Shown here piece by piece: positions 2,990 to 52,102 of a stretch of 64,000 nt of DNA (positions within the stretch are counted from its first letter, which is position 1; the number at the start of each line of letters is the position of its first letter). This DNA is from an uncultured Desulfurococcales archaeon (GTDB taxonomy: Archaea; Thermoproteota; Thermoprotei_A; EX4484-217-1). The stretch lies in NCBI GenBank assembly GCA_964526225.1, contig CAZGLL010000004.1:3455-67454 (forward strand), written 5' to 3'. A program made the position numbers and the translations under genes. A model generated the notes under the pieces. The model worked only from the letters and a program-made list of their open reading frames with translations, did no database searches and had not been told where the DNA came from.

Positions 2990-3006
2990 TTCTCACACCC
3001 CACCTC

Positions 3007-4419: not shown

Positions 4420-4598
4420 AATATAACCCCAAATACATACTTTTTAGATCGGATTCTTAAAACGATTTCCATAATGAAACTAATAAAGGAATACAAAAAT
4501 GCAGTTGTTTATGGTGTTTTCTACGATTAAATATTTAGTTTCACAATAATGTTATTATAGGTTTATTTAAATTAGAAAAAACCTTATTATGATATTGG
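4420..4598. promoter_or_regulatory. Divergent promoter region between gcvPA (minus) and gcvT (plus)
   Basis: A 179-bp AT-rich spacer. TATA-like tttatttaaat (4563-4573) lies ~27 nt upstream of the gcvT ATG at 4599. TATA-like gttttaagaa (minus strand, 4455-4464) lies ~40 nt upstream of the gcvPA TTG. Confidence 0.35.
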
Positions 4599-5744
4599 TT
4601 GAGGCGGATTTCTATGGCCATAAAAACACATCTTTGGGAATTTCATGTGAAAGAACTTGGCGCTACTATGGGCGAATTCGGCGGCTGGGAAGTGCCAATG
4701 CTATATACTAGCTCTATGGAGGAACATAACATAGTTAGAACGGATGTCGGAATATTTGATGTAGCGCATATGGGAAGAGTGAAGCTAACAGGACCTGACG
4801 TACTTCCATTCCTTCAGAAACTTTACCCAAAGGATATGTCTAAAACTAAGGAGCACTGGATGTCAGGTCCAACATTAGCTCTTAACGAATATGCTAGAGT
4901 CAAAGATGACGAAATGGCATATAAGGTTTCCGATGAGGAATGGTTCATAATAGTTAATGCACCCTATAGAGAGAAGATGCTAAAATACTATGATGAAGTA
5001 ATTAAGAAATACGGGTTTAAAGTGCAAGTCGAAGATATAACGTTTAAGTATGCTATGATAGCTGTGCAAGGACCAAAAGTAGAAGAAGTTTTCGAAAAAA
5101 TCGGCGCCGGATGGGCAAATGATCTCCACACACTAGAGTTTAGAATGAATGAGGAAATTGCTGGGCAAAAGGTTTACCTAATAAGCAGAAGCGGTTGGAC
5201 AGGCGAAGATGGATTCGAAATTTGGGCTGAACCTAAGGCGATGGTTGAAATATATCGTGCACTACTAAAAGCTGGAGCTAAACCTGTAGGAATTATATGT
5301 AGAGATACTCTAAGAATAGAAATGGGCTTCGTTCTAGGAGGAGACGAATACGGTGAAGATCCGACAAAGTTCCCGCCAGCATGCTGTTTAAGATACGGCT
5401 TAGGCGCTATAGATTGGAATAAGAGAGGATACATAGGTGAAGAAGCTCTTAGGGCATGTAGACGTGAAGGTTGCAGATGGATTAGAGTAGGTATTAGGAT
5501 GAAGAAGAAACATGCTAGAGCAATACTTAGACACGGATATACTATTTATGTTGAAGATCAACCCGTAGGTTGGATAACAAGCGGAACATATTCACCGTAT
5601 CTTAGGAGATCAGTAGGGCAAGCATACATTGATTCAAGATATGCTCTCTTCGGGGAAACCGTTGAAGTTGAAATAAGAGGAAAGAGATACGAAGGAAGAA
5701 TACTTGACTTCCCACTCGTGCCGGGTAGACCTGTAGTTAAATAG
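4599..5744 (+). CDS. gcvT: Aminomethyltransferase, glycine-cleavage T protein
   Basis: 381 aa with a GcvT-type N-terminus (KTHLWEFHVKELGATMGEFGGWEVPMLY, DVAHMGRVKLTGPD). An alternative start is the ATG at 4614 (MAIKTHL). A TATA-like tttatttaaat lies about 30 nt upstream. Confidence 0.93.
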   Translation: MRRISMAIKTHLWEFHVKELGATMGEFGGWEVPMLYTSSMEEHNIVRTDVGIFDVAHMGRVKLTGPDVLPFLQKLYPKDMSKTKEHWMSGPTLALNEYARVKDDEMAYKVSDEEWFIIVNAPYREKMLKYYDEVIKKYGFKVQVEDITFKYAMIAVQGPKVEEVFEKIGAGWANDLHTLEFRMNEEIAGQKVYLISRSGWTGEDGFEIWAEPKAMVEIYRALLKAGAKPVGIICRDTLRIEMGFVLGGDEYGEDPTKFPPACCLRYGLGAIDWNKRGYIGEEALRACRREGCRWIRVGIRMKKKHARAILRHGYTIYVEDQPVGWITSGTYSPYLRRSVGQAYIDSRYALFGETVEVEIRGKRYEGRILDFPLVPGRPVVK

Positions 5745-5812
5745 TTTTAAGTTAAAAAGGTTTTTTTGAATCCTACTCTATAACAACACATGTCCCCCAT
5801 AGGGGTTAAACT

Positions 5813-6238
5813 ATGAGCACAATAGAATTCGAAGTTGGAGGTAAAAAATACCTAGTAAGAACGGATGTTAGATACACTAAAACAGATGAATGGGCTAAGA
5901 AGGAAAATGGCAAAGTGAGAGAAGGAATAACAGATTACGCACAGAAGGAGTTAAAGGACATTGTAGGAATCGAGCTTCCCGAGGTTGGTCAGGAAGTTAA
6001 GAAGGGAGAGGCTATAGGAACTCTTGAATCCGTTAAAGCAACAGCTGACTTTTACGCAGCAGTTTCCGGAAAGGTAGTAGAGGTTAATGAGAGACTTCTT
6101 GACGAACCTGAGCTTTTAAACAAGGACCCATACGGTGAGGGTTGGATAGTAGTTATTGAAATGAGTGATCCTAAGGAATTTGATGAACTATTAACACCCG
6201 AACAGTACATCGAAATGCGTAAGAAAGAAGCACACTAA
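5813..6238 (+). CDS. gcvH: Glycine-cleavage H protein (lipoyl carrier)
   Basis: 141 aa with the lipoyl-lysine motif ESVKA and the typical GcvH C-terminal region (DPYGEGWIVVIE). Confidence 0.95.
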   Translation: MSTIEFEVGGKKYLVRTDVRYTKTDEWAKKENGKVREGITDYAQKELKDIVGIELPEVGQEVKKGEAIGTLESVKATADFYAAVSGKVVEVNERLLDEPELLNKDPYGEGWIVVIEMSDPKEFDELLTPEQYIEMRKKEAH

Positions 6239-6265
6239 AAACTAAAATAAAATTTATTTTTTATT
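6239..6265. terminator. T/A-rich bidirectional terminator region between convergent gcvH and the downstream minus-strand gene
   Basis: The run aaaactaaaataaaatttattttttatttt is pyrimidine/T-rich and lies between convergent stop codons. Archaeal terminators are oligo-T tracts. Confidence 0.35.
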
Positions 6266-7387
6266 TTAAACAACCTTCATCATTACTGCATCATGATAGT
6301 CAACTATTACCTTAATATAGTTTCTAAGCATGTTGTCTACTTCTTCATCACCAGTATCGACCCTTAAAACATCAAGGTTTCTAATTTTCCTCCACGTAGC
6401 AATAACTACTATGTTTTTCTTTCCGCCAACCTTCTTTATAACATTAGGCGATATCTGCTGATTACCTCTTCCGAAAATAAATCCCTGGCCACCAATAGGT
6501 GTTATTATTATTTTAGCTTTAGGGTATTTTTCTAAAAGTTCAAGTAATCCTTTCTCGTCAAGATCTTTACCTACAAGTTTACCATTGTAAACAGCGTCTA
6601 CGCCTAAAAGCGTCTTTTCTATACCTAGCCTATCAGCTATAGCCTTGACTGTTGTTCCAGCACCTAAAATGTATAGTGTATCTGGCTCCATTTCTTCAAC
6701 TATTCTTTCAGCAATAGCTCTCCTATTATCCTCCTCATCTGCTATATCGGTGCTTGGCTGTTTGGATGTTTGAACAAGCCCTGCAACAATAGGTACTTTA
6801 AGATAGCCATAAAGCCTAGCTTTTAAAACGTTCTTACGGTATGCTTCTTCATCAATATCTAAGACCTCTTCCTCAACGATTCTTGTTTCACCGTTAGCAA
6901 ATGCCTTAACTATTTCAGCAGCTGCTTTAGGGTTAACTGCGAAAACAGCGCTAAACATTTTCACTCCGGAGGGTATTCCTAACACCGGTATTTTCATGTC
7001 GATAGCGTCCGCTACATCCCTTGCTGTACCGTCTCCTCCAACAAACACTAGTAAATCTACTTTTTCATCAACCATCTGTTTAGCTATTCTTTTGGTATCT
7101 TCAGCAGTTGTTTTTTCAGAATATAGTTCTCCAACAATTTTAGCTATTTTATCTCTATGTTTCGACTTCTTAGCTACATCTTCACCCATAACCTTAGGTG
7201 CAACGTAGAGCTCGAAATCTTCAAGATCTAGGCTATTGAGGAATTCTAAAGCTCTCCCAGGAGTTACAGGTTTAGCGCCTTTCTTTAATGCTATGTAGTA
7301 TGCTTCACCATCTGTTCCCTTAAGACCTACTCTACCGCCCATTCCGGCAATAGGGTTAATTATTAGTCCCAGCTTTAGTTTTCTCAA
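6266..7387 (-). CDS. ATP-NAD kinase family protein (PpnK-like, COG3199-type predicted polyphosphate/ATP NAD kinase)
   Basis: 373 aa. The N-terminal half has the NAD-kinase/diacylglycerol-kinase GGDGT-type motif (LLVFVGGDGTARDVADAIDMKIPVLGIPSGVK). The C-terminal half repeats a Rossmann-like segment. Confidence 0.5.
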   Translation of the reverse strand: MRKLKLGLIINPIAGMGGRVGLKGTDGEAYYIALKKGAKPVTPGRALEFLNSLDLEDFELYVAPKVMGEDVAKKSKHRDKIAKIVGELYSEKTTAEDTKRIAKQMVDEKVDLLVFVGGDGTARDVADAIDMKIPVLGIPSGVKMFSAVFAVNPKAAAEIVKAFANGETRIVEEEVLDIDEEAYRKNVLKARLYGYLKVPIVAGLVQTSKQPSTDIADEEDNRRAIAERIVEEMEPDTLYILGAGTTVKAIADRLGIEKTLLGVDAVYNGKLVGKDLDEKGLLELLEKYPKAKIIITPIGGQGFIFGRGNQQISPNVIKKVGGKKNIVVIATWRKIRNLDVLRVDTGDEEVDNMLRNYIKVIVDYHDAVMMKVV

Positions 7388-7479
7388 CTTATTTCCCAGC
7401 TTTTACGCTATAATCCTTAGTATAATATAAGCATTCCTTATATGTAGTAGCTAGTAAACCAGTAGATAAAGCGGTAAAA

Positions 7480-8418
7480 ATGATTGTTAAAAGGAAGTTT
7501 GGAAAATACGTTATCGTAGCCTTACCTGTGAAAACAAGTTATTGGAAGCCTAGAAAATTCTTTCTACCAGAGGTTTGTATGAAACTTAAAGGTAAGGTTT
7601 CTCATGGAGATATTATAGTATTTTCTGAAAAAGCTCTCTCAGTAGCATTAAACAACATTTATGATGAAGGCACTATTAAACCCAGATTTATCCACAAGGT
7701 AATGGCTTTCTTAATAATGAATATTCTTTGGGGTCATGTTTTAGGAGAAATAACTAAGCTAAAACATGAAACTCTAGAGTGGATAAGGAAAGCTCCAATA
7801 AATGAAATTTCTGTACACAAGGCTCTTTCACTCAAAATCGGAGGCTTGCTTCAAGCCCTCAAACCTTCGTCGGAAGCTGGAATAGATACGTCAAACGTCC
7901 CATACACTTACGTTTCTTTACCTCTAATGAAATGTTCTATTGTTGAAAAGCTTAGAAGAGCTTTAGAAAAGTGCTTGGAAAAGAAAGTTTCAGTATTGAT
8001 TGTGGATAGCGATAGAGTCTATGTCCATAGAAGACTTAATTTAGCTCTCGCTTCAAGGAAAACATGTCTTAAACATCTTAGAAACTACGGTGTACTTTCG
8101 TATGTTCTGGGTAGAACCTTTAGAAGCATGTTCTATCCTAGGGCAACCCCTGTAATGTATTCAGGAATGAAAATAGATTTAAGATTACTTCTTGAAATAG
8201 CTGAAATAGCTGATAGAGCAAGAGGCATTGGTGCCGGAAGAACAGTTTTTGAAATGGCACGTAGATTTGGCGTAAGAGTAAGCGAAGTTACGTGGGAAAT
8301 GTTATCCTCAATACCTCACTACCCTATTGTGATAGTCAAATTTATTCGGAAAGAGCCCCATAGAAGAAATAATACAGTAAAGTCTAGGTGCTTAGGGTAT
8401 GGTTCAAGCGAAATTTAG
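7480..8418 (+). CDS. CofE-like protein (F420-0:gamma-glutamyl ligase family homolog)
   Basis: 312 aa. The segment SEAGIDTSNVP resembles the CofE NAGID-x-SN active-site loop. It overlaps the PTPS gene by 20 nt, indicating an operon. The family assignment comes from motif recall only. Confidence 0.45.
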   Translation: MIVKRKFGKYVIVALPVKTSYWKPRKFFLPEVCMKLKGKVSHGDIIVFSEKALSVALNNIYDEGTIKPRFIHKVMAFLIMNILWGHVLGEITKLKHETLEWIRKAPINEISVHKALSLKIGGLLQALKPSSEAGIDTSNVPYTYVSLPLMKCSIVEKLRRALEKCLEKKVSVLIVDSDRVYVHRRLNLALASRKTCLKHLRNYGVLSYVLGRTFRSMFYPRATPVMYSGMKIDLRLLLEIAEIADRARGIGAGRTVFEMARRFGVRVSEVTWEMLSSIPHYPIVIVKFIRKEPHRRNNTVKSRCLGYGSSEI

Positions 8419-8824
8419 GGTAGGTGTTGAAAATTTAAGCTTTGATGCCGCACACTATACTAAAGGTGTCGAAGGAAAATGCATGAACCTTCACGGACAC
8501 ACCTTTAAAGTAAATGTTGAAGTTGAAGGGGAAGTGAATCCGGAAACAGGTTTTGTCATAGACTTTAGCATTCTCAAGAAAATCGTAAAAGAAGTTATTG
8601 AAGAATATGATCATAAAGTAATTGTTCCTAAGAAGGATGTTAACGAAACGTTTCTCAAAGGAAAATTTAAAGGCGAAGTTAAAATATTAGACTATCCCGA
8701 AGCATCTACTGAGTACATAGCCTTAGATATTGCCCGTAAAATACATGTGAAACTAAACATGCCTGTGAAAGTAAAGTTGTTTGAAGGACTAGGAAATTAC
8801 GTAATTGTTGAAATTAGAAAGTAA
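8399..8824 (+). CDS. 6-pyruvoyl-tetrahydropterin synthase family protein (QueD/PTPS-III type)
   Basis: 141 aa with the FDAAHYTKGVEGKCMNLHGHTFKV zinc-binding His/Cys pattern of the PTPS/QueD fold. Confidence 0.85.
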   Translation: MVQAKFRVGVENLSFDAAHYTKGVEGKCMNLHGHTFKVNVEVEGEVNPETGFVIDFSILKKIVKEVIEEYDHKVIVPKKDVNETFLKGKFKGEVKILDYPEASTEYIALDIARKIHVKLNMPVKVKLFEGLGNYVIVEIRK

Positions 8825-8843
8825 ATAGTGGAGTTGTATTTTA

Positions 8844-9731
8844 ATGAGAGATGTGCAAAATGAAAAACCCATATATCCAATATACATAAGCAGGGTTGGC
8901 GTAAGAAACATTAAGAGAAGAATAATTCTCGAAGCACCTAAAAGAAGGTTGCATTTCGACGCAATACTTGATGTTTACGTTGACCTTCCTGCGGAGAAAA
9001 GAGGAGTTCATATGTCAAGAAATATTGAAGCGTTCATTGAAGCTATAGATGCTGTTAGACTAAAGCCTTTACCTACAATGGAGGAAATCCTCGACACAAT
9101 ATGTGATATTCTCCTTAAGAAACATGAGTACGCTTCAAGAGCTGAAGTAATAGCTAGAACAACATACTTCTATACTGAAACATTCCTTGGAATACCAGCT
9201 GAGGAAGCAGCCGACGTAGAAATAAAGGTTGCGAAAACAAGAGAAGGAGATGTAACTTACGTCGTTAAGGTTGGACTTTCAGGCATGACTGTTTGCCCGT
9301 GTGCTCAAGAAACATATAAATCCGTAGAGAAAACAAAGCTTCCACATACTCCATCACATGTTCAAAGGGCTAAACTTTACTTATCGATTAAAACAAAGGG
9401 AGTTTTCGTTAGAATAGAGAAACTTATAGAGGCAGGTAAAGCTGCTTTCTCAGCACCTACGCTTAGTTTGCTAAAGAGAATAGATGAGTATAGGCTTGTC
9501 AAACATGCTTTCGAAAACCCACGTTTCGTTGAAGATGTTGCTAGAGCGGCTCTCTGTAATTTATACAGGATCGTTAATGGTAAGGTTCCTGAAGATTCAG
9601 AAATAGAAGTTGAAGTCATAAGTTACGAGAGCATACATCCCTATGATGCATATGCTTACGCTAAGTTTTCCCTTAAAGATTTAAAGAGAGAAATAGAGGA
9701 AGCTAAAAAGGTTTCAAAAACTCACACGTAA
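8844..9731 (+). CDS. mptA: GTP cyclohydrolase MptA (FolE2/type IB family)
   Basis: 295 aa with the FolE2/MptA signature RGVHMSR and the CPCAQE cysteine pair. Confidence 0.85.
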   Translation: MRDVQNEKPIYPIYISRVGVRNIKRRIILEAPKRRLHFDAILDVYVDLPAEKRGVHMSRNIEAFIEAIDAVRLKPLPTMEEILDTICDILLKKHEYASRAEVIARTTYFYTETFLGIPAEEAADVEIKVAKTREGDVTYVVKVGLSGMTVCPCAQETYKSVEKTKLPHTPSHVQRAKLYLSIKTKGVFVRIEKLIEAGKAAFSAPTLSLLKRIDEYRLVKHAFENPRFVEDVARAALCNLYRIVNGKVPEDSEIEVEVISYESIHPYDAYAYAKFSLKDLKREIEEAKKVSKTHT

Positions 9732-10708
9732 AGAATAGTAGCTTTAGCTCCAGAATTTCTAACTTCAGTTATGTATCCGAAAAAGTCAAAATCAAAAGCC
9801 TCTATAGCTTTTAAAAGTATGTTTCTAGCTCTTCTATAGCCCTTAACTAAACAGTATGCTGTCGGACCCCAGCTACTTTGCCCATATCCTTCACAGCCTA
9901 ATTTACTAAAAATGTTCACTACGGTTTCTGTTTCTTCACAACAAAATATTCCGCCTTGATATTTCGAAAAATACTTGCCAACAATTAGTTGAAGTTTAGT
10001 TAAAGCTTTACCAAATAACGTTATATCTTTCTCTACAATTGAGGGTATTATTTTCTCTAGGAGAATTTCGTAAAGTTCACGTTGCAAACTTCTAGGAGGT
10101 ATCGGTGGTTTGCTGAGAATACTTTCTTCTTCTATTTCTGAAAGACCTCTTCTCCTAATTGGAGTTATAACTAAAAACTTCCAGCTCTTTGGAATATTAG
10201 CTCTAAAAATTACAGCTGGAATATCGTTTGGAGTAGTAGGTTTTCTAAGAATCCCGTTTGTGGGCTTTTTCCTTCCCGAATCAACAATAAAACCTCCTCT
10301 TTCGAATGCTGCAATACCTATACCTGATACATCACCTCTACCTAAAATTGACGCTAAATCTCTTATTCCGATATTTAGTTTTAAGAGCTTCTTGAAAGCC
10401 AAAGCTACGGCTAAAAGTGTTTGCGTTGTTGACCCGAGTCCGACATGTTTTGGTAGAATTTTTTCGAATACTACAGAATATCCTTTAACACCTAGTTTTC
10501 TAGCAACATCACTAACTAGTTTTCCATAGTACTCACTATTTATGGGCGATTCTACATTTATTCCCTTTTGAAGTGAAGCTTTAAGAACAAGTTCTGGTTG
10601 CTTTATTGCTACACCTATGCTTCCATAGACTCTGTTTTCGCTTACAAAATTATAGAATCCTAAATGTAGCCTAGCTGAAGTTACAACCTCTACGATTGCT
10701 TTAGCCAT
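9722..10708 (-). CDS. GHMP-kinase-fold protein, beta-ribofuranosylaminobenzene 5'-phosphate (beta-RFAP) synthase-like
   Basis: 328 aa with a GHMP-kinase glycine-rich loop (GRGDVSGIGIAAFERGGFIVDSG). The size and the pterin-operon context fit the archaeal RFAP-synthase family. Family-level inference only. Confidence 0.55.
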   Translation of the reverse strand: MAKAIVEVVTSARLHLGFYNFVSENRVYGSIGVAIKQPELVLKASLQKGINVESPINSEYYGKLVSDVARKLGVKGYSVVFEKILPKHVGLGSTTQTLLAVALAFKKLLKLNIGIRDLASILGRGDVSGIGIAAFERGGFIVDSGRKKPTNGILRKPTTPNDIPAVIFRANIPKSWKFLVITPIRRRGLSEIEEESILSKPPIPPRSLQRELYEILLEKIIPSIVEKDITLFGKALTKLQLIVGKYFSKYQGGIFCCEETETVVNIFSKLGCEGYGQSSWGPTAYCLVKGYRRARNILLKAIEAFDFDFFGYITEVRNSGAKATILYV

Positions 10709-10725
10709 GCTACTCCAACCCTATT

Positions 10726-12306
10726 TTAAAAAGGTATTTTTCTTTTGCGAAAGAGCGTTCTTTCTTGGACATAGTTTTTACCTATTATCAAGGCCTCCTC
10801 AGCTTTAGAAAGCTCTATTCCAAGATAGAATGCGTGTGAAAGCGTTGAGACAAGATTTCTCCTTAAAATTTCATCTCTAATTTCTCTGGCTGTTTTCCCT
10901 CTAATCAATATTTTCCCCTTTCTCCCTATATATAGGGCTTCGATAACTTCATCTTCATGGTTGACTCTAATTTTAAACACACCTAAGGGATCTAGTTCAT
11001 ATTCTTTTTCGCTCTTCTGCGCTTCAACAATTTCCGCTCCTTCAACATCTAGAGGGGTTTCAATCCTCCTTTTATCTTTAAGTATCAACAGATCTATTCC
11101 AAGATCTTTTGGCGGAGAGTTTTTAATCCAAGCTAAAGAGGCCATACGTGCTGCAATGGACGCTTCATAGGTTGATCCTTGTGCTTTACAGCTTTTTTCG
11201 ACAACAAGCACTAAACTTACACCTATTTCTGCAGCTAACATTACAAGTAATGCGTTTGAACCTACAGTATCTGCATCTAAAAGCTCTACAACATTACCTA
11301 TACCAATAAGCATAGGTATTTTCGGATATTTCTTCTTAAAGATATAGTACGCTAGAAGGGATTGAAATGAGCTTTTAGAGTTTATAGGGTCAAGTATCGG
11401 ATCAGCAATTATCTTTTCAACATTATGTTGTAATGCTTTACCGATATTTTCTTCTAAGAGCTTAAATTTTTCCTCAGCAGTTTTAGGTTGTACTGGGAGT
11501 TTTGAATCATAAGCTATAATTACGACAGGGATTTCAGTGACATATTTAGCTACTTTTCCAATATTACTTGCTTCAAGGCTCATAACCATGTCTGCTCCAG
11601 CTTCAACAGCAGCTATTATTTCGCTGGGAATTATCGAATCTACGGCTATAGGCACTGAAAGTTCCTTTTTAAGAAATCTAATGGTTTCTCTAACCTTTTC
11701 AGCATGTGATATTCCTGCTTCAAAACCTATGCTTAAAATGTCTGCTCCTTCATTAACGAGCTTCCCTGCTTTCTTAAGAAGTTTATCTCGTGATAATAAG
11801 TGAGCTTCAGTTATTTCGGCAATAACCCTTATAGGCGGTGGTGTTGCAGGAACAATAACATTACCTACGATTAAATGTGGTTTTTCAACAATAGATTTTT
11901 CCAATTCCTCTAAGAGCTTCCTATTTGAATTCAAAATTTCTTCTTCAATAAGTTCGTCAGCGGGTTTATCGGGTGATAGCTTGTTTAAGTCCTTCAACGA
12001 AAATATTGCTGGTATATCTGTTGCTTGAAGTGTGCCTTTAACGGCCTTTATACCTACTGTTTCCTCTATTACTTTCGCTGAACCTGTAGAAGCTCCAGGA
12101 ATAAGTATCAAATCGTAATCTCCCTTTTTAACACCAACCTTCTTCAAATAGTTAGCTATAAGCTCTGTTGTCGCTAATGCTGCAACCGCTATAGGTAATT
12201 CCAGAACATCTACTTGGTAAGGTCCTGCTACCGATTCAATAGCCTTTCTAACAACTGGTGCTGCAAGTTTACCTGTAACTACTAAGATTTTCAAAGCAGG
12301 GCACAC
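10726..12306 (-). CDS. Archaeal dihydropteroate synthase-related protein (central pterin-binding DHPS-like domain)
   Basis: 526 aa. The central region (ADILSIGFEAG...VPIAVDSIIPSEIIAAVEAGADMVMSLEAS) resembles the N-terminal half of DHPS (pterin-binding TIM barrel). This is the ~500-aa archaeal-only DHPS-related architecture. Confidence 0.6.
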   Translation of the reverse strand: MCPALKILVVTGKLAAPVVRKAIESVAGPYQVDVLELPIAVAALATTELIANYLKKVGVKKGDYDLILIPGASTGSAKVIEETVGIKAVKGTLQATDIPAIFSLKDLNKLSPDKPADELIEEEILNSNRKLLEELEKSIVEKPHLIVGNVIVPATPPPIRVIAEITEAHLLSRDKLLKKAGKLVNEGADILSIGFEAGISHAEKVRETIRFLKKELSVPIAVDSIIPSEIIAAVEAGADMVMSLEASNIGKVAKYVTEIPVVIIAYDSKLPVQPKTAEEKFKLLEENIGKALQHNVEKIIADPILDPINSKSSFQSLLAYYIFKKKYPKIPMLIGIGNVVELLDADTVGSNALLVMLAAEIGVSLVLVVEKSCKAQGSTYEASIAARMASLAWIKNSPPKDLGIDLLILKDKRRIETPLDVEGAEIVEAQKSEKEYELDPLGVFKIRVNHEDEVIEALYIGRKGKILIRGKTAREIRDEILRRNLVSTLSHAFYLGIELSKAEEALIIGKNYVQERTLFRKRKIPF

Positions 12307-12356
12307 TCACGATATATCCTATGACTATCGAAAACTACTAGTTTATTTTATTTTCC

Positions 12357-13142
12357 CTACTGAATAATATTTTCTACTTCGAAATAGTCTAGATGTTTAA
12401 CATTAAAATTTTTAATACGGCTCTTACCTAGTGTAAATACCTTATTTACAGCTACTTTCGCAATGAGCTCCTTAGCTATTTGGAACTTCTTCTTCTTGGT
12501 CTCCCACGCTTTTATGTTATGTTTAAGCCAGGGTTTAGAGTATTTTCCAACGATTTCGCCAAAATCCATTGCTACTAAGAATATTTTTGATGCACTAAAT
12601 TTTAACGCTAAAAATAGAGCTCTATCGCCATCAGTGAATCCGCCATAGTTTTCAACGCACCCTTCAGGTTCTAGCTGAGTAGTGTAAATACTGTAGGGAA
12701 AAAGTTTACCTAAATACTTCCTTAACGCTGAAATATTATCCCCATGAGCATGAATGACCATTACTGCCCCATTAAATGCTGCTTTAAATAACGCTTCGAA
12801 ATCTCCATCTAAGTCTGTAACTACAATGTCAGGATATATTCCGTAATCTATTAGAGCTTTTGTTGCGCCGTCAACGCTTACTATTGTTATTTTAGATTTT
12901 CTTTTAAAGAGTATTTCTCTTAAACCTTCAATATCGTCCTCTAGTGTTGGTGAAGCGCCGAAAATAAATATGTTTCTTCGATGGATTTTTTGAAAGATTT
13001 TTCTAAAATTGGTTCTTGTAAATGAACAATTTATTTTCGCTGCTACAAAGCTTCTCGCTCTTAGATCGTCTAACGTATTTACATTAATTATTCTTTTAAC
13101 TACTAAGTAGTAATCGAAAATAGCTTCTCTGTTTAAAAGCAT
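12357..13142 (-). CDS. MptE-like 6-hydroxymethyl-7,8-dihydropterin pyrophosphokinase (DUF115 family)
   Basis: 261 aa with the DUF115/MptE-type motifs IFIFGASPTLEDD and DIVVTDLDGD. It is co-directional with the DHPS-related and RFAP-synthase-like genes. Confidence 0.55.
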   Translation of the reverse strand: MLLNREAIFDYYLVVKRIINVNTLDDLRARSFVAAKINCSFTRTNFRKIFQKIHRRNIFIFGASPTLEDDIEGLREILFKRKSKITIVSVDGATKALIDYGIYPDIVVTDLDGDFEALFKAAFNGAVMVIHAHGDNISALRKYLGKLFPYSIYTTQLEPEGCVENYGGFTDGDRALFLALKFSASKIFLVAMDFGEIVGKYSKPWLKHNIKAWETKKKKFQIAKELIAKVAVNKVFTLGKSRIKNFNVKHLDYFEVENIIQ

Positions 13143-13222: not shown

Positions 13223-14665
13223 TTGAATAAAAGCTTAGTGATATTAGGAGCCTTAGGTAGAATAGTGCTTGCCCTAGGGATGTTGCTTTTAGTACCTATA
13301 CCTATCGCTATGGTTTACGGCGAGTATACGTTAATAAAATACTTTCTATATCCCTCATCTATATCCCTCCTAATAGGTTTAGTTCTTACATTAGCAATTT
13401 CCTTGTCATTTAGGGATGTAGGGCTTTTTGAAGCAATGGCTATTTCTGCTTTAGGATGGATTATCGCTTCGATAATAGGTTCTATACCTTACATTTACAT
13501 TTTAAAAATGAGTCCTGTTGATGCGTTTTTCGAAACAATGTCAGGATTTACAACTACAGGTATGACTTTAATCAAAATTATTGAGGGTAAACCATACTCT
13601 ATTCTTTTCTGGAGAGCTTTTACCCAATGGATTGGTGGTGTGGGAATAATCCTCTTTTTTATAGTAATGTTCGCTGGTGGAGGTGCTCCAGGTCTCAGAA
13701 GACTATATATGGCTGAAGCAAGAGAGGAAAAGCTAACCGTTTCTACATGGCACACTGTTAAGTATATTTGGATAATATATTTCGCATATTCAGCACTATG
13801 TACGATAGCTCTATGGCTTGCCGGTATGAATCCTTACGAAGCAATTACGCATACGTTTACGGTTCTTTCAACGGGAGGGTTCTCTACAAGAACTGCAAGT
13901 ATAGCTGCTTTCAATAGCTTAACTATAGAGATAGTACTAATAGTTTTCATGATTATTGGGGGCATAAGCTTTTTAGCTCACTACACTTTGTTCACAAAGG
14001 GCTTGAGAAACTTTCTAAGACATTATGAAGTTAAGGCCATATTTTTAATAATAGGTTTATCTACTGCAGTAGTAACCTACGATTTAGTAATTCATGGAGT
14101 AGATGTTTTTAGAGCGTTAAGGGAATCCCTATTTCAAGTAGTTTCGATAATGACAACAACAGGATATACGACAATAGACATAAACGCTCTACCTCCATTA
14201 TCTAAAGCAGTAATAACCATTCTAATGTTCATAGGCGGCGGTGCCGGTTCAACAGCAGGGGCAATTAAGGTAGCTAGGATAGTTATTGCTCTTAAAGCTG
14301 TTAGTTACGAATTAAACAAACTATTACTACCAAGAGGCTCCGAGAAGCCCCTTAGAATAGGTTTTAGAGTTTTACAAGAAGAAGACGCCTTAAGAATAAC
14401 GTCATTCATAATAGCCTACTTAGTCTTTTATGTTGCAGGAGTTCTGATACTTACTTTTAGAGGGATAGATGTTTTCTCAGCTATGTCGGCAGTAGCTTCA
14501 GCTCAAGGTAATGTTGGTCCGGCATTCATCTCCCTATTTGACCTCGACGACGTTTCTAAACTGGTTTTAGCTTTAGAAATGTGGGTTGGTAGATTAGAAG
14601 TACTCCCGGTCCTAGCGCTTTTAAACTTTAAAGCTTGGAGAAGTGTTTTAGGGGGAACTAGCTAA
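13223..14665 (+). CDS. trkH: TrkH/KtrB-family potassium uptake transporter
   Basis: 480 aa polytopic membrane protein. It has repeated selectivity-filter-like segments (TTTGMT, STGGFS, MTTTGYTTI, GGGAGSTAGA). Confidence 0.88.
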   Translation: MNKSLVILGALGRIVLALGMLLLVPIPIAMVYGEYTLIKYFLYPSSISLLIGLVLTLAISLSFRDVGLFEAMAISALGWIIASIIGSIPYIYILKMSPVDAFFETMSGFTTTGMTLIKIIEGKPYSILFWRAFTQWIGGVGIILFFIVMFAGGGAPGLRRLYMAEAREEKLTVSTWHTVKYIWIIYFAYSALCTIALWLAGMNPYEAITHTFTVLSTGGFSTRTASIAAFNSLTIEIVLIVFMIIGGISFLAHYTLFTKGLRNFLRHYEVKAIFLIIGLSTAVVTYDLVIHGVDVFRALRESLFQVVSIMTTTGYTTIDINALPPLSKAVITILMFIGGGAGSTAGAIKVARIVIALKAVSYELNKLLLPRGSEKPLRIGFRVLQEEDALRITSFIIAYLVFYVAGVLILTFRGIDVFSAMSAVASAQGNVGPAFISLFDLDDVSKLVLALEMWVGRLEVLPVLALLNFKAWRSVLGGTS

Positions 14666-14673
14666 ACTATAGT

Positions 14674-15843
14674 GTGAAAGCGGAAATGGAAGGAATAGCT
14701 GATCTACCACTACATGAAGGACACGTACCTCTATGGCTACTTAGGCTTATGAGAAAACTAGCTAAGGCTATAGTTGAAATATTCATTTTAGAGTATGGTC
14801 CGGACAGACTTGTTGAAAGGCTGGCTGATCCATTATGGTTCCAAGCTTTCAATAATGTAATAGGTATGGACTGGGATAGTAGTGGATCAACAACAGTTAC
14901 CTTAGCCATGCTTAGATCTGTTCTTAACAATGGAGAATATGGTGTTTTAGTTTTAGGAGGTAAAGGCTCTAAAGCTAAGTCGGTGCCTGAAGAAATAAAC
15001 TATGCTGTAGAGAAGCTTAGCTTACCTAGTAGGCTAAGCGACAAGCTTAAGAAAGCCTCTAGATTAGTTGCTAAGGTTGATTCTGCTCTTGTTCAAGACG
15101 GCTACTCAATATATATTCATTCCCTCATAGTTTCTGAGAATGCTAAGTGGGCCATTGTACAGCAGGGAATGAATGTAAACTTGAAAATGGCGAGAAGATA
15201 TCATTGGCTTTCAGATAATTTAGAAAGCTATGTTAGAGAACCGCATAGCGGAATTCTCACGTTGAATATGGAAAAAGCTGTGCTAAACCTTGTGGATAGG
15301 AATGTTGAAGGTGCTCGAAAAACCATTGTTGATTTAGCTAAGGAAAGCCCGTCAGCAATAGTTAACATGTATAGGGATGCATTAAATGCGTTAAGAAAAC
15401 AAACCACACTTTACCCGGAAGCCTCAATAGTACGCGTAGATCCCGTTAAGAAACAGATATACTATGCTCCAATAACTTCAATAAACACTTTAGCTGAAAG
15501 AATAGCAAGAATTAAGGAGGTTTCACCTAGAAACCTAGAAGAGCTCTTATTAGTAAGAGGAGTTGGTGCTTCAACCATTAAAGCTCTCGCATTAATCTCA
15601 GATCTAATATTCAATGAACCACCCTCATATCGTGATCCAGCCAACTACATTTACGATCCATTTAGATACACTTTCGCCGTTGGGGGAAAGGATGGAGTAC
15701 CGTACCCGGTAAATAGGAAGGTTATGGAGGAAACCATTGTTACACTTGAAAACATAATTAAGGAGGCAAAAATCAGTCCTAAAGATAAAAGAAGAGCTTT
15801 AAATAGACTAAAATCGTTGAGGGCAATGGTTCATGAAAAATGA
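14674..15843 (+). CDS. Hypothetical protein with a helix-hairpin-helix segment (DUF763-like)
   Basis: 389 aa with an HhH-like motif LLLVRGVGASTIKALALISD. The family assignment is tentative. Confidence 0.35.
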   Translation: MKAEMEGIADLPLHEGHVPLWLLRLMRKLAKAIVEIFILEYGPDRLVERLADPLWFQAFNNVIGMDWDSSGSTTVTLAMLRSVLNNGEYGVLVLGGKGSKAKSVPEEINYAVEKLSLPSRLSDKLKKASRLVAKVDSALVQDGYSIYIHSLIVSENAKWAIVQQGMNVNLKMARRYHWLSDNLESYVREPHSGILTLNMEKAVLNLVDRNVEGARKTIVDLAKESPSAIVNMYRDALNALRKQTTLYPEASIVRVDPVKKQIYYAPITSINTLAERIARIKEVSPRNLEELLLVRGVGASTIKALALISDLIFNEPPSYRDPANYIYDPFRYTFAVGGKDGVPYPVNRKVMEETIVTLENIIKEAKISPKDKRRALNRLKSLRAMVHEK

Positions 15844-16486
15844 TATTTTTAGAACCCTTTTAGATCTAGGCTTCTCCGAAGACACTTTCTCAGAGGTAAT
15901 TGCTGTAACAAGGTTTGAAAATATGTGGAACTGTTCCCCACTTGGTGTAAAACTTAATTCAGAGAACAAAACATTGCACTTCTATGTTTATGAAGGAGCA
16001 AGAATACTTAGCTTCCTTAGTAAACGAAACCTATTTACGCTAAATGTTGTTAACGAGTATTCGGCTTTTTTAAATTGCATTTTCAAAAGAAATATTGAAA
16101 ATGAAATACGAAAAATAACCAATACATTGGGATATTTGAGAATAGCTGATGCTTATATTGTATGTGAAAATAGCTTACCTATAAAGGTTAGTAAAGATAA
16201 GTACTTGGTCAATGCGTTTGCTAAAGAAATAGTTATTCTTAGAAACAAGCCTAGAGCATTTAATAGGGTATTGCCAGCAGTAATCGAAGCATTAATATGC
16301 TACACAAAGATTAAACCTTATAGTAAAGTGTATGGTTTCTCATCAGTATTGGAGCTTCTGGAAAGAATAAGGTACTGTAAAGATATAGTGGATCATGCGA
16401 CATCGAATTCTGAAGCTAAAAGAGCGATTGATTTCATTTATGAGGAAGCAGTTAAGCTTGCAAATAACCTAAGGGAGGATAGATAA
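15833..16486 (+). CDS. Hypothetical protein
   Basis: 217 aa. It overlaps the previous gene by 11 nt and ends 3 nt before the CitG-like gene, indicating an operon. No motif was recognised. Confidence 0.35.
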   Translation: MKNDIFRTLLDLGFSEDTFSEVIAVTRFENMWNCSPLGVKLNSENKTLHFYVYEGARILSFLSKRNLFTLNVVNEYSAFLNCIFKRNIENEIRKITNTLGYLRIADAYIVCENSLPIKVSKDKYLVNAFAKEIVILRNKPRAFNRVLPAVIEALICYTKIKPYSKVYGFSSVLELLERIRYCKDIVDHATSNSEAKRAIDFIYEEAVKLANNLREDR

Positions 16487-16489
16487 TAC

Positions 16490-17437
16490 ATGTACATGAG
16501 CACCATAGAGCGGCTATTAACATCTTCAGTAGCCGCTCTAATACTTGAAGTTGTAGCTACACCTAAACCTGGGAACGTACATAGGTACCATAGTTATGAA
16601 GATATGGGATTAGAGCATTTCATAGTTTCATCTTCGGCATCAATATGGTGTTTTCGCAAGCTCCTAATAGCCACATTAAATAGTGGCTTACGTAGGGAAA
16701 CTTATGTTCCAGGTATTGGTGAAACAATACTGTGTTGTGTGAGGAACTCTAAAAAGTGGCATAGAGGAGGAAATGTAAACCTAGGTACTTCAACAATACT
16801 TTCAATATTATTACCCTCAATACTACTTACTGAAATAATTCATAACAAAGTGATCATGGAGGACCTTTCATTTACAGCTAAAAGTGTTGTTAAAAACACC
16901 ACTGTTGATGATGCTGTAAAATACTATGAAGCAATAAGAACTGCTTCTCCAAGATATTTAGGTAGAGTAAATAATGCTCCAATACCTGACGTTTACGATG
17001 AAAATTTTGAACATAAAATAAGAAGTAATAAAGTCACATTATACGATGTTTTAAAGTATGCATCATCCGAAGATATAGTTTCTAGAACTTGCGTTAACGG
17101 GCTAAAGGAAATCATCGAAGGCTATAACTATTTAAAAACGTTCTTCAGAAGGTATGGTGATATAAATAATGCAATAGTTCTTACCTATCTTAAACTTCTA
17201 AGTAAGTATGATGATTTCATAGTTTTAAGAAAGCATGGAAGAAAAGTAAGCTCATATGTGAAGAATAGAGCTTCCGAAATCGTTAAGTTAATAGAGGAGG
17301 ACTTCGATAGAGGCTTTAGTGCACTTAAACGGTTCGATAATGAACTTTTCATTAGAAAAATTAATCCGGGAAGCATCGCTGATATAACAGCGGTATCAAT
17401 AACTTTGGCATTATTCATGAATGAAGTAAAGGTGTAA
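16490..17437 (+). CDS. CitG/MdcB-family protein (triphosphoribosyl-dephospho-CoA synthase homolog)
   Basis: 315 aa. The N-terminal ATPKPGNVHR matches the CitG (L)TPKPGLVD signature. Confidence 0.6.
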   Translation: MYMSTIERLLTSSVAALILEVVATPKPGNVHRYHSYEDMGLEHFIVSSSASIWCFRKLLIATLNSGLRRETYVPGIGETILCCVRNSKKWHRGGNVNLGTSTILSILLPSILLTEIIHNKVIMEDLSFTAKSVVKNTTVDDAVKYYEAIRTASPRYLGRVNNAPIPDVYDENFEHKIRSNKVTLYDVLKYASSEDIVSRTCVNGLKEIIEGYNYLKTFFRRYGDINNAIVLTYLKLLSKYDDFIVLRKHGRKVSSYVKNRASEIVKLIEEDFDRGFSALKRFDNELFIRKINPGSIADITAVSITLALFMNEVKV

Positions 17438-17454
17438 GGTGGGGTTTAGATTAA

Positions 17455-18537
17455 TTGAATATTAGAGCTATAACGTTAATGGTAGGAGAGATATATGGAA
17501 AAGATATTCATGAAGCAGAAAGCATAGTGGAAAACGTTGTTTCGAAATTTATAGTGCTATTGGATGAGTTAAAGAAAAAATTTAAAGTATGGACAATAAG
17601 GCTTTCTTTACCATATGTAAACCCCAATATAAAGGATGTTGAAAAGTACGCTAGCGTATTTGAGAATATTGCGGAAAAGTATTCAATAGATTTTGTTTCA
17701 TCACTTCACTTTAGATCAAATGATAGTAGAATATGGAGCATACCAGGTGCTTTACTTAATAATGAGAAAACCTTTGGAAGCATTGTATTGAAAGGATACG
17801 ATGATTTATTACCTATTGCTAAAATATTTGAAAACCTTAACGAAGATAATGGATATAAATTAGTGGCTATTTGGGGAGAAACGTTAACACCATACTTTCC
17901 AGCGTCAAGAGCTCCAATAGGTTCAAACGGGATAACATATACACCATTTATTGTTGAAGAATATTTAGCATTTAAAGATGTTGAACATGCTGAAGAAAAA
18001 ATTGCCACTAAACTCTTCCAAGTAAACTCCCAAATTGAAAATTTAGCGGAAAAATACAGTCTTAAATTCTTTGGTGTAGACGTTTCACCCAGTCCATGGA
18101 TGGATATAAGTGTTGCTAAAGTTATAGAACGTCTTGGAGGAGTACGTTTTGGAGAATACGGAACTCTATATGGGGTGTGGTTGTTAAGCAAGTCTATCAG
18201 CAATATTACGTTAAAATTACAGAGTAAAACAACAGGTTTCAATGAGATAATGCTTCCGGTTGCTGAAGATAATGTGTTAAAGGAGAGAGCTATTGAGGGA
18301 ACATATAGTGTAAAAGATTTAGTTCAATACTCTTTCGCATGCGTTTATGGTTTGGACATGGTTCCTATAGCTAAACCTGTAGGATACCGAAAAATAATGA
18401 GAATACTTTACGATTTAAAAGTTGCAAGCGAAGTTAAAAAGAAACCTGTAGGTTTTAGAATAATCCCAGTAAACGCAGAACCTGGCTCAATTATTGACCT
18501 TGGATTTTTCGGCCATACTCCAGTGTTCAAACTTTAG
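17455..18537 (+). CDS. Hypothetical protein, last gene of the CitG-like operon
   Basis: 360 aa with coding-like composition. The 178-aa antisense ORF at 17706..18242 is Ser/Leu-rich and is rejected. Confidence 0.4.
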   Translation: MNIRAITLMVGEIYGKDIHEAESIVENVVSKFIVLLDELKKKFKVWTIRLSLPYVNPNIKDVEKYASVFENIAEKYSIDFVSSLHFRSNDSRIWSIPGALLNNEKTFGSIVLKGYDDLLPIAKIFENLNEDNGYKLVAIWGETLTPYFPASRAPIGSNGITYTPFIVEEYLAFKDVEHAEEKIATKLFQVNSQIENLAEKYSLKFFGVDVSPSPWMDISVAKVIERLGGVRFGEYGTLYGVWLLSKSISNITLKLQSKTTGFNEIMLPVAEDNVLKERAIEGTYSVKDLVQYSFACVYGLDMVPIAKPVGYRKIMRILYDLKVASEVKKKPVGFRIIPVNAEPGSIIDLGFFGHTPVFKL

Positions 18538-18586: not shown

Positions 18587-19744
18587 GTGAAGTTTTTGAC
18601 AAAACTGCTTCAACTCTACCCTAAATACGGTATAAGAATTGTTAAAGGCTATATGCAATACGTTTGGGATGATAAGGGAAATAAGTACATAGACCTTCAT
18701 ACGGGATATGGAACAGCATTTCTAGGTCATTCAAACCCAAAAATAGTGGAAAGAATTTATCGGCAAATGAAAGAAATTATGGTTGCTTCATACTCCTTCG
18801 ACGTTAACTCAAGAGATGAAAGCATTAAAGCTCTCTCTAAAATTCTCCCTAAAAAACTAGAATACGTTTTCTTCCAAAATAGTGGAACTGAAGCTGTTGA
18901 AGCTGCATTGAAATTTTCTAGGAAACATACTAAAAGGAAAAAGTTCATAGCCTTCACAAACTCCTTCCACGGAAGAACTATGGGCTCTCTTTCATTAACG
19001 TGGAATCCTAAATATAGGAAACCCTTCTTTGCCGAATCAGAGGATGTTGTTTTTCTTAGGTTTAATTGTGTTTTTGATGTTGAGAGGTTTGTTGATGAGG
19101 GGGTGGCTGCTGTTGTTGTTGAGGTTGTTCAGGGTGAAGGGGGATTAAACGTTGCCACACCCGAATTCCTAAAGGCAATAAGGGAAAAATGCGGCGAAGT
19201 AGGCTGCGTAACAATATTCGACGAAGTACAAACAGGATTCGGAAGAACAGGAAAAACATGGGCACACCAACACTACAACATAGAACCGGACATTCTAGTT
19301 GCTGGTAAGGCTATTGGCGGAGGCTTTCCTGTAAGTTTAGTAGTTACTTCTAGTGAAATTGGAGAATCTTTGGAGTTAGGGGAACATGGAACAACCTATG
19401 GTGGTAATCCTGTTGCGTGCGCAGCTGTTTCAGCGTCAATAGATGTTTTATTAGAAGATGATGTTGCAGATAAGGCTCGTGCAGCTGGTGAGTACTTCAG
19501 AAAGAAACTTAGTGAGATAGTTTCAAGAGAAAAACTGAAAGGTTTAGGATTAATGATTGGAATAGATATTGGCGAGAACCCTGAGTTCGCGATTAAATCA
19601 TTACTTAATGAGAAAATAATTTCGTTAAAAGCAGGAGAAACAGTGCTAAGATTTCTACCTCCCTACATGATAACCAAGGAGGATATAGAGCATATAGTTG
19701 AGGCATTAAATAAGGTGTTGAGGAAGGAAAGCTATTCATCATAG
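18587..19744 (+). CDS. Class-III aminotransferase, acetylornithine / LysW-gamma-L-lysine aminotransferase
   Basis: 385 aa. It has the acetylornithine-aminotransferase N-terminal pattern (YIDLHTGYGTAFLGHSNPKIV) and the PLP-lysine region DEVQTGFGRTG. Confidence 0.9.
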   Translation: MKFLTKLLQLYPKYGIRIVKGYMQYVWDDKGNKYIDLHTGYGTAFLGHSNPKIVERIYRQMKEIMVASYSFDVNSRDESIKALSKILPKKLEYVFFQNSGTEAVEAALKFSRKHTKRKKFIAFTNSFHGRTMGSLSLTWNPKYRKPFFAESEDVVFLRFNCVFDVERFVDEGVAAVVVEVVQGEGGLNVATPEFLKAIREKCGEVGCVTIFDEVQTGFGRTGKTWAHQHYNIEPDILVAGKAIGGGFPVSLVVTSSEIGESLELGEHGTTYGGNPVACAAVSASIDVLLEDDVADKARAAGEYFRKKLSEIVSREKLKGLGLMIGIDIGENPEFAIKSLLNEKIISLKAGETVLRFLPPYMITKEDIEHIVEALNKVLRKESYSS

Positions 19745-20442
19745 AGCGTTTTTAAGGGTACATTAACATCGCTTAGTTGAATCTTTAATACATGTCTTGT
19801 TGATTTTGGCGGAAACCTTTTACCCTCTCTAACAACTCTTAGAACTTCGGATTTAGGTATAGGCGGGGGAATTATAGCTACAAATGGATTCTTAGTATAA
19901 GTCTCCACTTCAGTATCGGGTATAATACTTACCTCGCACCCTAATGCTTTAACGAATTTATCAAGGAAATGTATTGTCCAGTATAGTTTGTAAATGTTTG
20001 AAAATGATAAGTCAATAACATCACCATCACTATTTAGGATTTTCACAATAAATTCCTCATTGCCATGTTCACCATCAGATGTTTTCATGAGTTTAACTAA
20101 GCTCTTTACGAAAAACCCTATATCGCAAAATCCTTCATAAATATGTGCCCATGAGCGAATTTCAGCTAATTCATAACTAATAAGCAACGCTGGAATCTTC
20201 TTAAAACCAAGTTTTCTAGCTAAAGTAACTCTGTGTGTACCATCAAGAACGGTTAGTGTTGTTTTTTCGACTATTATAGGTCTTTTAATGACGCCGTCAT
20301 TTAGAATTTCTTTTTCAAGCTCCTCTAAATGTTTAGCAATATGATGTTCATGAAGCTTTAGAGAGTCAACACTAACTAAGGCGTATCTGAAAGCTTTACG
20401 CTGTTTGGCGATTGCATTTTTAGAGACCACAAGAAACACCAC
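19732..20442 (-). CDS. ParB/sulfiredoxin-like nuclease-domain protein
   Basis: 236 aa with the ParB-N/Srx motif LTVLDGTHRVTLARKLG. Confidence 0.5.
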   Translation of the reverse strand: MVFLVVSKNAIAKQRKAFRYALVSVDSLKLHEHHIAKHLEELEKEILNDGVIKRPIIVEKTTLTVLDGTHRVTLARKLGFKKIPALLISYELAEIRSWAHIYEGFCDIGFFVKSLVKLMKTSDGEHGNEEFIVKILNSDGDVIDLSFSNIYKLYWTIHFLDKFVKALGCEVSIIPDTEVETYTKNPFVAIIPPPIPKSEVLRVVREGKRFPPKSTRHVLKIQLSDVNVPLKTLYDE

Positions 20443-42542: not shown

Positions 42543-42655
42543 TTTTCGGACTCAATTTAGTTTAATATAAGTTTTTCGCATTAACCACTATATTTCTCTA
42601 TTTTGGAAAGCATTATTTAATTATTTCAAATCCTTAAACTCTAAGGGATTACCTT

Positions 42656-43147: not shown

Positions 43148-43153
43148 AACGCT

Positions 43154-44299: not shown

Positions 44300-44311
44300 G
44301 GTGTAAAGCTT

Positions 44312-45837: not shown

Positions 45838-45839
45838 TT

Positions 45840-47959: not shown

Positions 47960-47960
47960 A

Positions 47961-50157: not shown

Positions 50158-50315
50158 TCAAATTATTCCCTCATACCATAATTTCCTTATAGCTTAGAGA
50201 TTTGAGTTTCTGTAAAATATATTTCCAACTAACAATATACTATATGTGCTGACTTAGGATTTACATAAAACGTGCTCCCAGTACGTGGTGTTTAAAGGGG
50301 AAGGAGGCTTACTAA

Positions 50316-51977: not shown

Positions 51978-52102
51978 TTTCAACACTTCTTCTCAATCCT
52001 TTCTCGAATAAAATATTTAGGTTATCTACGTAGTGCTCTATAGAGCATATGCAACTACCAACTTATATTAGCTTACTTCAGTGTCAGACAAGTGGAGTGC
52101 TT

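Follow-up and report, generated by a model that had tools for sequence, protein, structure and literature searches.

The four-gene block and its two central proteins

The subject of this study is a block of four plus-strand genes at positions 14674-18537 of a 64-kb stretch of contig CAZGLL010000004.1, which belongs to an uncultured Desulfurococcales archaeon and is referred to below, at its full length of 64,000 nucleotides, as the window. The nearest named relative is the Guaymas metagenome-assembled genome (MAG) "Desulfurococcales archaeon ex4484_217". The block begins with a DUF763 protein of 389 aa as called (14674-15843; Pfam DUF763), followed by a DUF447 protein of 217 aa (15833-16486; Pfam DUF447_N/DUF447_C), a CitG-like protein of 315 aa (16490-17437; Pfam CitG) and a short DUF711/UPF0210 variant of 360 aa (17455-18537; Pfam DUF711). 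The open reading frames (ORFs) of the first two genes share 11 nt (ATGAAAAATGA), and spacers of 3 nt and 17 nt separate DUF447 from the CitG-like gene and the latter from DUF711; such spacing suggests that the four genes are co-transcribed. A first-pass annotation, made from the bare sequence, had described four tightly linked plus-strand ORFs here, among them a DUF763-like protein with a helix-hairpin-helix stretch and a CitG homolog with a TPKPG signature, and Pfam and sequence agree with it on all of these. The 217-aa and 360-aa proteins, which it had entered as unknown, can however be placed by Pfam in DUF447 and DUF711.

The CitG-like protein scores 198.4 bits against Pfam CitG (PF01874; cut-off 27, E = 2.5e-58), is matched by PDB entry 3H9P at 1e-61, and carries both the TPKPG motif (ATPKPGNVHR, residues 22-31) and an NPGSxAD motif. 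A phmmer search with E. coli CitG against the window gave 22.7 bits, while hhalign aligned the archaeal profile (A1, built from 17 archaeal relatives) with E. coli CitG at 99.2% probability over 262 columns and 22% identity. The motifs E..PKPG.V.R, G.NT..G, DT and (N/S)PG..AD are common to the archaeal proteins and E. coli CitG, and those around PKPG and (N/S)PGxxAD are invariant in alignment A1. The equivalog models for CitG and MdcB (TIGR03125, TIGR03132, NF002315 and NF007503), on the other hand, stay at 30-54 bits, where their cut-offs are 272-477. Searches of the 64-kb window with E. coli CitC, CitD, CitE, CitF and CitX returned nothing real, and no citrate-lyase or malonate-decarboxylase family was found among the roughly 50 window ORFs scanned with Pfam; a CitD match of 14.9 bits at 50316-51344 is spurious, the ORF being AIR-synthase-related (AIRS/AIRS_C). 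Judged by its sequence, the protein is a homolog, though not an ortholog, of E. coli CitG, and we reject a canonical CitG function on the equivalog scores, which are far below cut-off, and on the lack of citC/D/E/F/X in the window. The first-pass annotation had likewise seen no citrate-lyase or malonate-decarboxylase genes, as holds within the window, and the distinction that it implied between this homolog and the CitG/MdcB of such a system is supported. Profile A1 moreover gives 114-138 bits to proteins from bacterial tetrahydromethanopterin (H4MPT) islands, compared to 68.8 bits for E. coli CitG, placing the family nearer to the former than to bona fide CitG.

The adjoining DUF447 protein matches DUF447_N (PF04289/PF20766 family pair) with 42.9 bits against a cut-off of 24 (E = 5e-11), and DUF447_C with 23.5 bits, marginally under the cut-off of 24.8 (E = 6e-5). 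Its relatives in the PDB, over most of its length, are two structural-genomics proteins, 2IML from A. fulgidus (5e-10) and 2PTF, or MTH_863 (4e-8), for neither of which we know of a published function. From structural-genomics entries we take DUF447 to be a split-barrel fold that binds flavin mononucleotide (FMN), and regard the protein as a candidate flavin-dependent enzyme of a methanopterin-type pathway. As of June 2026, NCBIfam held no specific model for either the CitG-like or the DUF447 protein.

Linkage of the CitG-like and DUF447 genes to pterin pathways

In the window, a pterin cluster lies 1.5-8 kb upstream of the CitG-like/DUF447 pair, and MptA, RFAP synthase, a DHPS-like protein and MptE were all located in it, so that its placement by the first-pass annotation, some 1.5 kb from the block and across trkH, holds. 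We scanned for relatives of the CitG-like protein, taking one genome per species, which gave 590, and examined the best 80 loci by profile searches of the flanks within 10 kb of the CitG-like gene. All 80 are archaeal, from Thermoprotei, Bathyarchaeia, Hadesarchaea, Methanomethylicia, Asgard lineages, anaerobic methanotrophic archaea (ANME), Methanosarcinales and Archaeoglobi. At least one known pterin/H4MPT gene (RFAP synthase, DHPS-like, MptA, MptE or dihydromethanopterin reductase) lies nearby in 31 of them; DHPS-like genes were seen at 15 loci, RFAP synthase at 10, and MptA and MptE at 5 each. A DmrX-type dihydromethanopterin reductase (TIGR02700) is near the CitG-like gene at 21-26 of the 80 loci, and DUF447 at 23. 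Lineages showing this linkage include Bathyarchaeia, Hadesarchaea, Methanomethylicia, Ignisphaera and Archaeoglobi. The layout in Bathyarchaeia is DHPS-like, RFAP synthase and DUF447, divergent from the CitG-like gene, and in Ignisphaera (L055; the loci compared carry L numbers) the order is DUF447, MptA, RFAP synthase, MptE, CitG-like. Among 80 metagenomic DUF763 loci, taken as a comparison, about 2 have pterin genes, once cross-hits from GHMP kinases and flavoproteins are discounted: the apparent 'RFAP synthase' matches of hidden Markov models (HMMs) at these loci are pantoate kinases, and the 'DmrX' matches are probably other flavoproteins or Fe-S proteins.

The linkage crosses into a second domain of life. 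Our bacterial set consists of four tblastn matches to the CitG-like protein, on megaplasmids of Azospirillum, Phyllobacterium, Rhizobium and Paraburkholderia, and all four are located inside tetrahydromethanopterin-linked formaldehyde-oxidation islands for one-carbon (C1) metabolism. One strand of the island carries RFAP synthase, mtdB, an ATP-grasp gene, mch, a RimK-type ligase gene, the CitG-like gene and fae, and the other strand, in Phyllobacterium and partly in Rhizobium, carries MfnB, an aldolase, a flavoprotein, a DHPS-like (DUF6513) protein and DUF447. In these two (L171 and L174), DUF447 abuts the DHPS-like and flavoprotein genes; in the Paraburkholderia stretch it was not detected. 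A tblastn search with DUF447 against plasmids found nothing, bacterial DUF447 being seen only by profile HMMs. A published gene order for an H4MPT island is orf19-orf20-afpA-orf21-orf22 (PMC3615186).

Given the linkage to pterin/H4MPT genes in both the archaeal loci and the bacterial islands, the CitG-like and DUF447 proteins very probably act in the side-chain assembly of a methanopterin-type cofactor. This association is not new. We take orf20 to be the CitG homolog and orf21 to be DUF447, and M. extorquens mutants of the orf20/orf21 type, in the work of Chistoserdova, Rasche and Lidstrom from 2005 (J Bacteriol 187:2508), reportedly lack the cofactor, which would make the genetic evidence about 20 years old.

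Two further genes accompany the archaeal CitG-like family. In about 15 archaeal loci, the gene directly adjoining CitG-like encodes a Pol-beta nucleotidyltransferase (NTP_transf_2, motif G.SGS...SDIDLIVYG; some 340 aa), and in 24 of the 80 such a gene is found within 10 kb (loci include L003, L007, L014, L015, L019, L021, L022, L027, L042, L046, L054, L063, L066, L071, L072 and L076). This enzyme has no homolog in the window and no PDB relative, and as a CitX homolog it was rejected, hhalign giving a probability of 0.1% against E. coli CitX; that it might be a partner in a CitX/MdcG-like coupling of an activated phosphoribosyl group to a hydroxyl acceptor is only an idea. The other is a methanogenesis-marker-9/MJ0144 Dus-like flavoprotein, whose gene follows within about 10 bp of the CitG-like gene in Methanosarcinales (L032, L034, L035, L058, L068, L069 and L070) and also in L044, L057 and L074, often with DmrX, DUF447 and DHPS-like genes near, and which we count as a further candidate for the pathway.

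The companion genes and their surroundings

The block as a whole recurs in close relatives only, namely L001, L087, L089 and L091. L089 is identical to the window in layout, trkH and the pterin cluster included, whereas L087 (38-48% identity across the block) and L091 have other upstream contexts and lack the arrangement of trkH before DUF763. Neither DUF763 nor DUF711 was found at the other 79 of the 80 CitG-like loci; Ignisphaera L055 has DUF447, MptA, RFAP synthase, MptE and the CitG-like gene, and neither of the two companions. The proposal of the first-pass annotation, a candidate operon for pterin side-chain steps, is thus supported for the CitG-like and DUF447 genes, linked as they are to the pathway, and not for the four genes as a conserved unit. 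Beyond one lineage, nothing supports a role of DUF763 or DUF711 in the pathway, and their inclusion is a lineage-specific peculiarity of uncertain meaning.

Upstream, a TrkH-family transporter gene (13223-14665, plus strand) ends 8 nt before the first ORF of the block; it may be co-transcribed with the DUF763 block and is probably unrelated to the pterin pathway. Downstream, a 49-nt spacer with an A/T-rich, TATA-like stretch separates the DUF711 gene from an aminotransferase gene. Some relatives carry additional genes at the block. Between DUF447 and the CitG-like gene, a metallo-beta-lactamase (MBL)-fold gene (236 aa, SHSHMDH motif) that the window does not have is present in L091 (9823-10533) and, split, in L001 (1481-2183), and its position would suit a dephosphorylation step between reduction and ribosylation. 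Divergent upstream of DUF763, a HEPN domain gene with a small adjacent gene occurs in L087 (3251-3965), L091 (7166-7880) and L103 (6839-7755); the small gene is a nucleotidyltransferase in L087, and in the window this position is held by trkH.

The DUF763 protein is a full-length match to its family (PF05559; 407.9 bits, 4e-122, profile positions 1-319 of 319) and contains the helix-hairpin-helix-like stretch LLLVRGVGASTIKALAL. Since homologs begin with MEGIADLPLH, translation probably starts from the ATG at 14686, for a protein of 385 aa. There are 2577 homologs, the window protein being at least 50% identical to those of Sulfolobales and Staphylothermus, and the 72 invariant columns of the alignment, in which many invariant residues are polar, suggest an enzyme. 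Its AlphaFold2 (AF2) model, with a predicted local distance difference test (pLDDT) score of 85.3, had no PDB fold match at E<0.4. At just one of the 80 DUF763 loci, L091, is the CitG-like/DUF447 pair nearby, and DUF763 is isolated in S. acidocaldarius, S. marinus and L173 (58% identical). The commonest neighbour is instead a pantoate kinase-PPAT pair directly upstream on the same strand, found at 22 of the 68 loci that are informative for the upstream neighbour (among them L109, L117, L121, L122, L127, L129, L130, L137, L140 and L147); at 8 PPAT-DUF763 loci, a LipS1 lipoyl synthase gene is near on the other strand. The product of PPAT, dephospho-coenzyme A (dephospho-CoA), is what true CitG acts on. 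All PPAT-linked DUF763 proteins fall into a single clade (pairwise identity 56-99%), and near none of those 22 loci was DUF447 or a CitG-like gene found. DUF763 also occurs in Xanthomonas and Sinorhizobium, for which we know of no methanopterin pathway.

The last protein of the block matches the C-terminal half of Pfam DUF711 (120 bits, 1.4e-34, profile positions 210-412 of about 413), and scores 83 bits against NCBIfam PRK05313, whose cut-off is 440. Its AF2 model (pLDDT 95.8) predicts a ten-stranded barrel, for which Foldseek returned SP0239 (2HA9; E = 1.8e-16, TM 0.78) with the whole predicted fold superposed, as well as weak matches to class I-III ribonucleotide reductases (RNRs) at E of about 1e-3. 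ECOD groups DUF711 with RNR and PFL (PMC4390871). From alignment and model, we read the protein as a shortened, divergent DUF711 subfamily, about 90 residues shorter than typical DUF711/UPF0210 proteins such as 2HA9. This subfamily is small, with 30 homolog clusters whose named members are crenarchaeal; within it, Cys296 is invariant, as are several acidic and polar residues, and its modelled barrel is that of RNRs and glycyl-radical enzymes. In Hyperthermus and Aramenus the gene is unlinked to the CitG-like/DUF447 pair, and in L088 a divergent CitG-like gene is found at a distance of 3 kb.

The pterin genes of the window, assigned by Pfam and NCBIfam, comprise a CofE-like ligase (7480-8418; CofE-like match of 41 bits), PTPS (8399-8824) and MptA (8844-9731) on the plus strand, and RFAP synthase (9722-10708), the DHPS-like TIGR00284 protein (10726-12306) and MptE (12357-13142) on the minus strand. 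Further upstream are the glycine cleavage genes P1, P2, T and H (1418-6238), with NAD kinase next to them, so that 1418-13142 can be seen as a C1/pterin super-cluster in which makers and users of the cofactor are co-located. The CofE-like gene, of the F420_ligase family, overlaps the start of PTPS by 20 nt. CofE-like proteins are known as replacements of FolC, on the strength of which this ligase may glutamylate the pterin cofactor instead of F420.

Beyond the block, the class-III aminotransferase (18587-19744, plus strand; LysJ/ArgD-like) scores 413.5 bits for the argD subfamily (cut-off 410) and 505.8 bits for LysJ_Sulfobales. It is syntenic in L001, L087, L089 and L091, and probably belongs to lysine or arginine biosynthesis, outside the unit; LysX-like and OTCase genes are found elsewhere in the window. 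A ParB_N/SerK-like gene on the minus strand (19732-20442) overlaps the aminotransferase stop by 13 nt with its 3' end and is conserved in the syntenic relatives; against the model for ADP-dependent serine kinase its product scores 64 bits, far under the cut-off. At 41355-54442, a mannosyl-3-phosphoglycerate synthase gene precedes a membrane-bound hydrogenase/Nuo-like module, including a CCG-domain (HdrB-like) protein, after which come HypD, the AIR-synthase-related ORF mentioned above, and HypF; being AIR-synthase-related and placed between HypD and HypF, this ORF is probably HypE. A scan of the 64-kb window found no tRNA or Rfam features.

A proposed route for the side chain and its alternatives

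Methanopterin-type cofactors require several middle steps, that is, reduction of the ribofuranosyl group to ribitol, dephosphorylation, alpha-ribosylation and head-group attachment, and, as far as we could establish, none of these has an assigned enzyme. We propose, with moderate confidence, that the DUF447 and CitG-like genes (15833-17437) are a conserved side-chain pair for a C1 cofactor derived from RFAP, with DUF763 and DUF711 outside the core. Before the pair comes into play, RFAP synthase and the DHPS-like condensing enzyme, whose genes are 4-8 kb upstream, would join the pterin to ribofuranosyl-aminobenzene phosphate. DUF447, as a split-barrel flavoprotein, would then reductively open the C-ribofuranosyl ring to ribitol, a role suggested by its presumed FMN split barrel and by its position next to the DHPS-like gene in Phyllobacterium and Rhizobium, and to the DHPS-like/RFAP synthase pair in Bathyarchaeia. 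Following dephosphorylation, the CitG-like protein would transfer an alpha-linked 5-(tri)phosphoribosyl group onto the terminal (5-) hydroxyl of ribitol, the donor being ATP by analogy with CitG, or possibly PRPP; a shared donor chemistry is favoured by the retention of the family-wide CitG motifs. In M. extorquens, the ribosyl-ribitol bond is present in the cofactor, which does without the phosphate and hydroxyglutarate. The presence of the CitG-like gene in bacterial islands, taken together with that structure, fits ribosylation and not head-group attachment. DUF763 and the short DUF711 would be co-transcribed companions in the Desulfurococcales-like lineage only, engaged in lineage-specific tailoring or in unrelated housekeeping.

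Several points weigh against this proposal. The methanopterin scheme of White from 1996 is said to have PRPP, and not ATP, as the ribosyl donor. Neither the searchable literature nor NCBIfam (June 2026) holds a biochemical assignment for the CitG-like or the DUF447 protein. At 49 of the 80 CitG-like loci, there is no pterin gene in the flank. Packed as they are with the pair into one unit, DUF763 and DUF711 could be members of the pathway after all. Furthermore, a plasmid of Natrinema thermotolerans (L082, 8971-10415) carries a CitG-like gene, whose product scores 226 bits with the archaeal profile, next to DUF447, although haloarchaea have been described as devoid of methanopterin-specific enzymes (PMC8305020); on this account, the pair may serve another or an additional product. 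The Natrinema pair is located 3 kb from cofD.

An 11-nt overlap and gaps of 3 nt and 17 nt suggest translational coupling, and the block is kept in L001, L087, L089 and L091 down to 38-58% identity, with a different upstream context in L087 and L091, as would be expected if all four genes formed one dedicated late side-chain operon in which DUF763 and DUF711 supply, for example, head-group attachment or phosphate handling. The nearness of the short DUF711 to a divergent CitG-like gene in L088, and of DUF763 to MptE in L103 (about 1 kb), would fit as well, and the window, having no Pol-beta nucleotidyltransferase partner of the kind seen elsewhere, leaves one step open. Yet we consider such an operon unlikely: DUF763 is near the CitG-like gene at one of 80 CitG-like loci, and the pair is just as rare at DUF763 loci (one of 80); S. 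marinus, S. acidocaldarius and L173 have DUF763 by itself, and it is also present in Xanthomonas and Sinorhizobium; Hyperthermus and Aramenus show no linkage for the short DUF711; and the relatives that keep the block remain syntenic downstream of it over more than 10 genes, so that conservation of the block may be plain synteny. Doubtful, too, is the bolder idea that the pair has recruited DUF763 and a shortened RNR-fold DUF711, in some relatives along with an MBL-fold hydrolase, into a translationally coupled unit that builds a lineage-specific head group on the crenarchaeal modified folate; if true, it would provide a first functional anchor for DUF763 and the short DUF711.

Linkage places genes in a pathway and cannot order its steps, and thus the pair might serve methanopterin-type synthesis at other points, the CitG-like protein activating or phosphorylating an intermediate, or DUF447 being a non-redox binding protein. 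The acceptor-binding parts of the CitG-like protein indeed differ from those of CitG, at 22% identity, and other flavoenzymes, DmrX and the MJ0144 Dus-like/marker-9 protein, cluster with it too. All family-wide CitG motifs are nevertheless retained, and so is the gene itself in bacterial islands, the M. extorquens cofactor still having the ribosyl-ribitol bond; we give this placement a rather small chance. Smallest by far is the chance of a canonical CitG/MdcB function, or of a new CoA-derived prosthetic group made by ribosylation of 3'-dephospho-CoA, with DUF763 in the same CoA-related process. The Pfam CitG domain, and the pantoate kinase and PPAT genes preceding DUF763 at 22 of 68 informative loci of other lineages, speak for it; opposed to this are the equivalog scores (30-54 bits versus cut-offs of 272-477), the lack of citC/D/E/F/X in the window, and the embedding of the CitG-like family in pterin/H4MPT clusters of both archaea and bacteria, while the PPAT-linked DUF763 proteins are a single clade with neither DUF447 nor CitG-like genes near those 22 loci.

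What the window adds to the association of the pair with the pathway is modest. A literature search for methanopterin with CitG, DUF447, DUF763 or DUF711 found no functional assignment, in a searchable set that did not include the key genetics papers. The neighbourhood data do sharpen the list of candidates: DUF447 stands beside the DHPS-like gene (L171 and L174) and after RFAP synthase in the Bathyarchaeia clusters, and the CitG-like gene travels with the Pol-beta nucleotidyltransferase, DmrX or the Dus-like flavoprotein, all of them clonable candidates for reconstitution in vitro. Efforts at methane mitigation have the pathway as a target, and it is relevant to C1 engineering too.

Compared to CitG/MdcB (EC 2.4.2.52), the CitG-like protein is homologous over nearly its full length, with the PKPG, GxNTxxG, DT and (N/S)PGxxAD motifs in common, and by analogy it probably carries out the same kind of alpha-ribosyl transfer. 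It differs in its 22% identity, in equivalog scores below cut-off, in lacking a citrate lyase or acyl carrier protein (ACP) context in the window, and in its presumed acceptor, an aryl-ribitol of the pterin cofactor and not dephospho-CoA. The DUF763 protein, for its part, is an ordinary full-length member of PF05559 (408 bits) in an unusual setting, since elsewhere the gene is found alone or after pantoate kinase and PPAT, not in a unit with DUF447 and CitG-like genes. Closest to the window are the orf20/orf21 genes of methylotrophs, which represent the same two families (114-138 bits for CitG-like and 63-65 bits for DUF447 with the archaeal profiles) and likewise have RFAP synthase, a DHPS-like/DUF6513 protein and an AfpA/DmrX-type flavoprotein as neighbours. 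Unlike these islands, the window is archaeal and Desulfurococcales-like, carries no mch, fae, mtd or fhc genes, and has its CitG-like/DUF447 pair combined with DUF763 and the short DUF711 in one unit.

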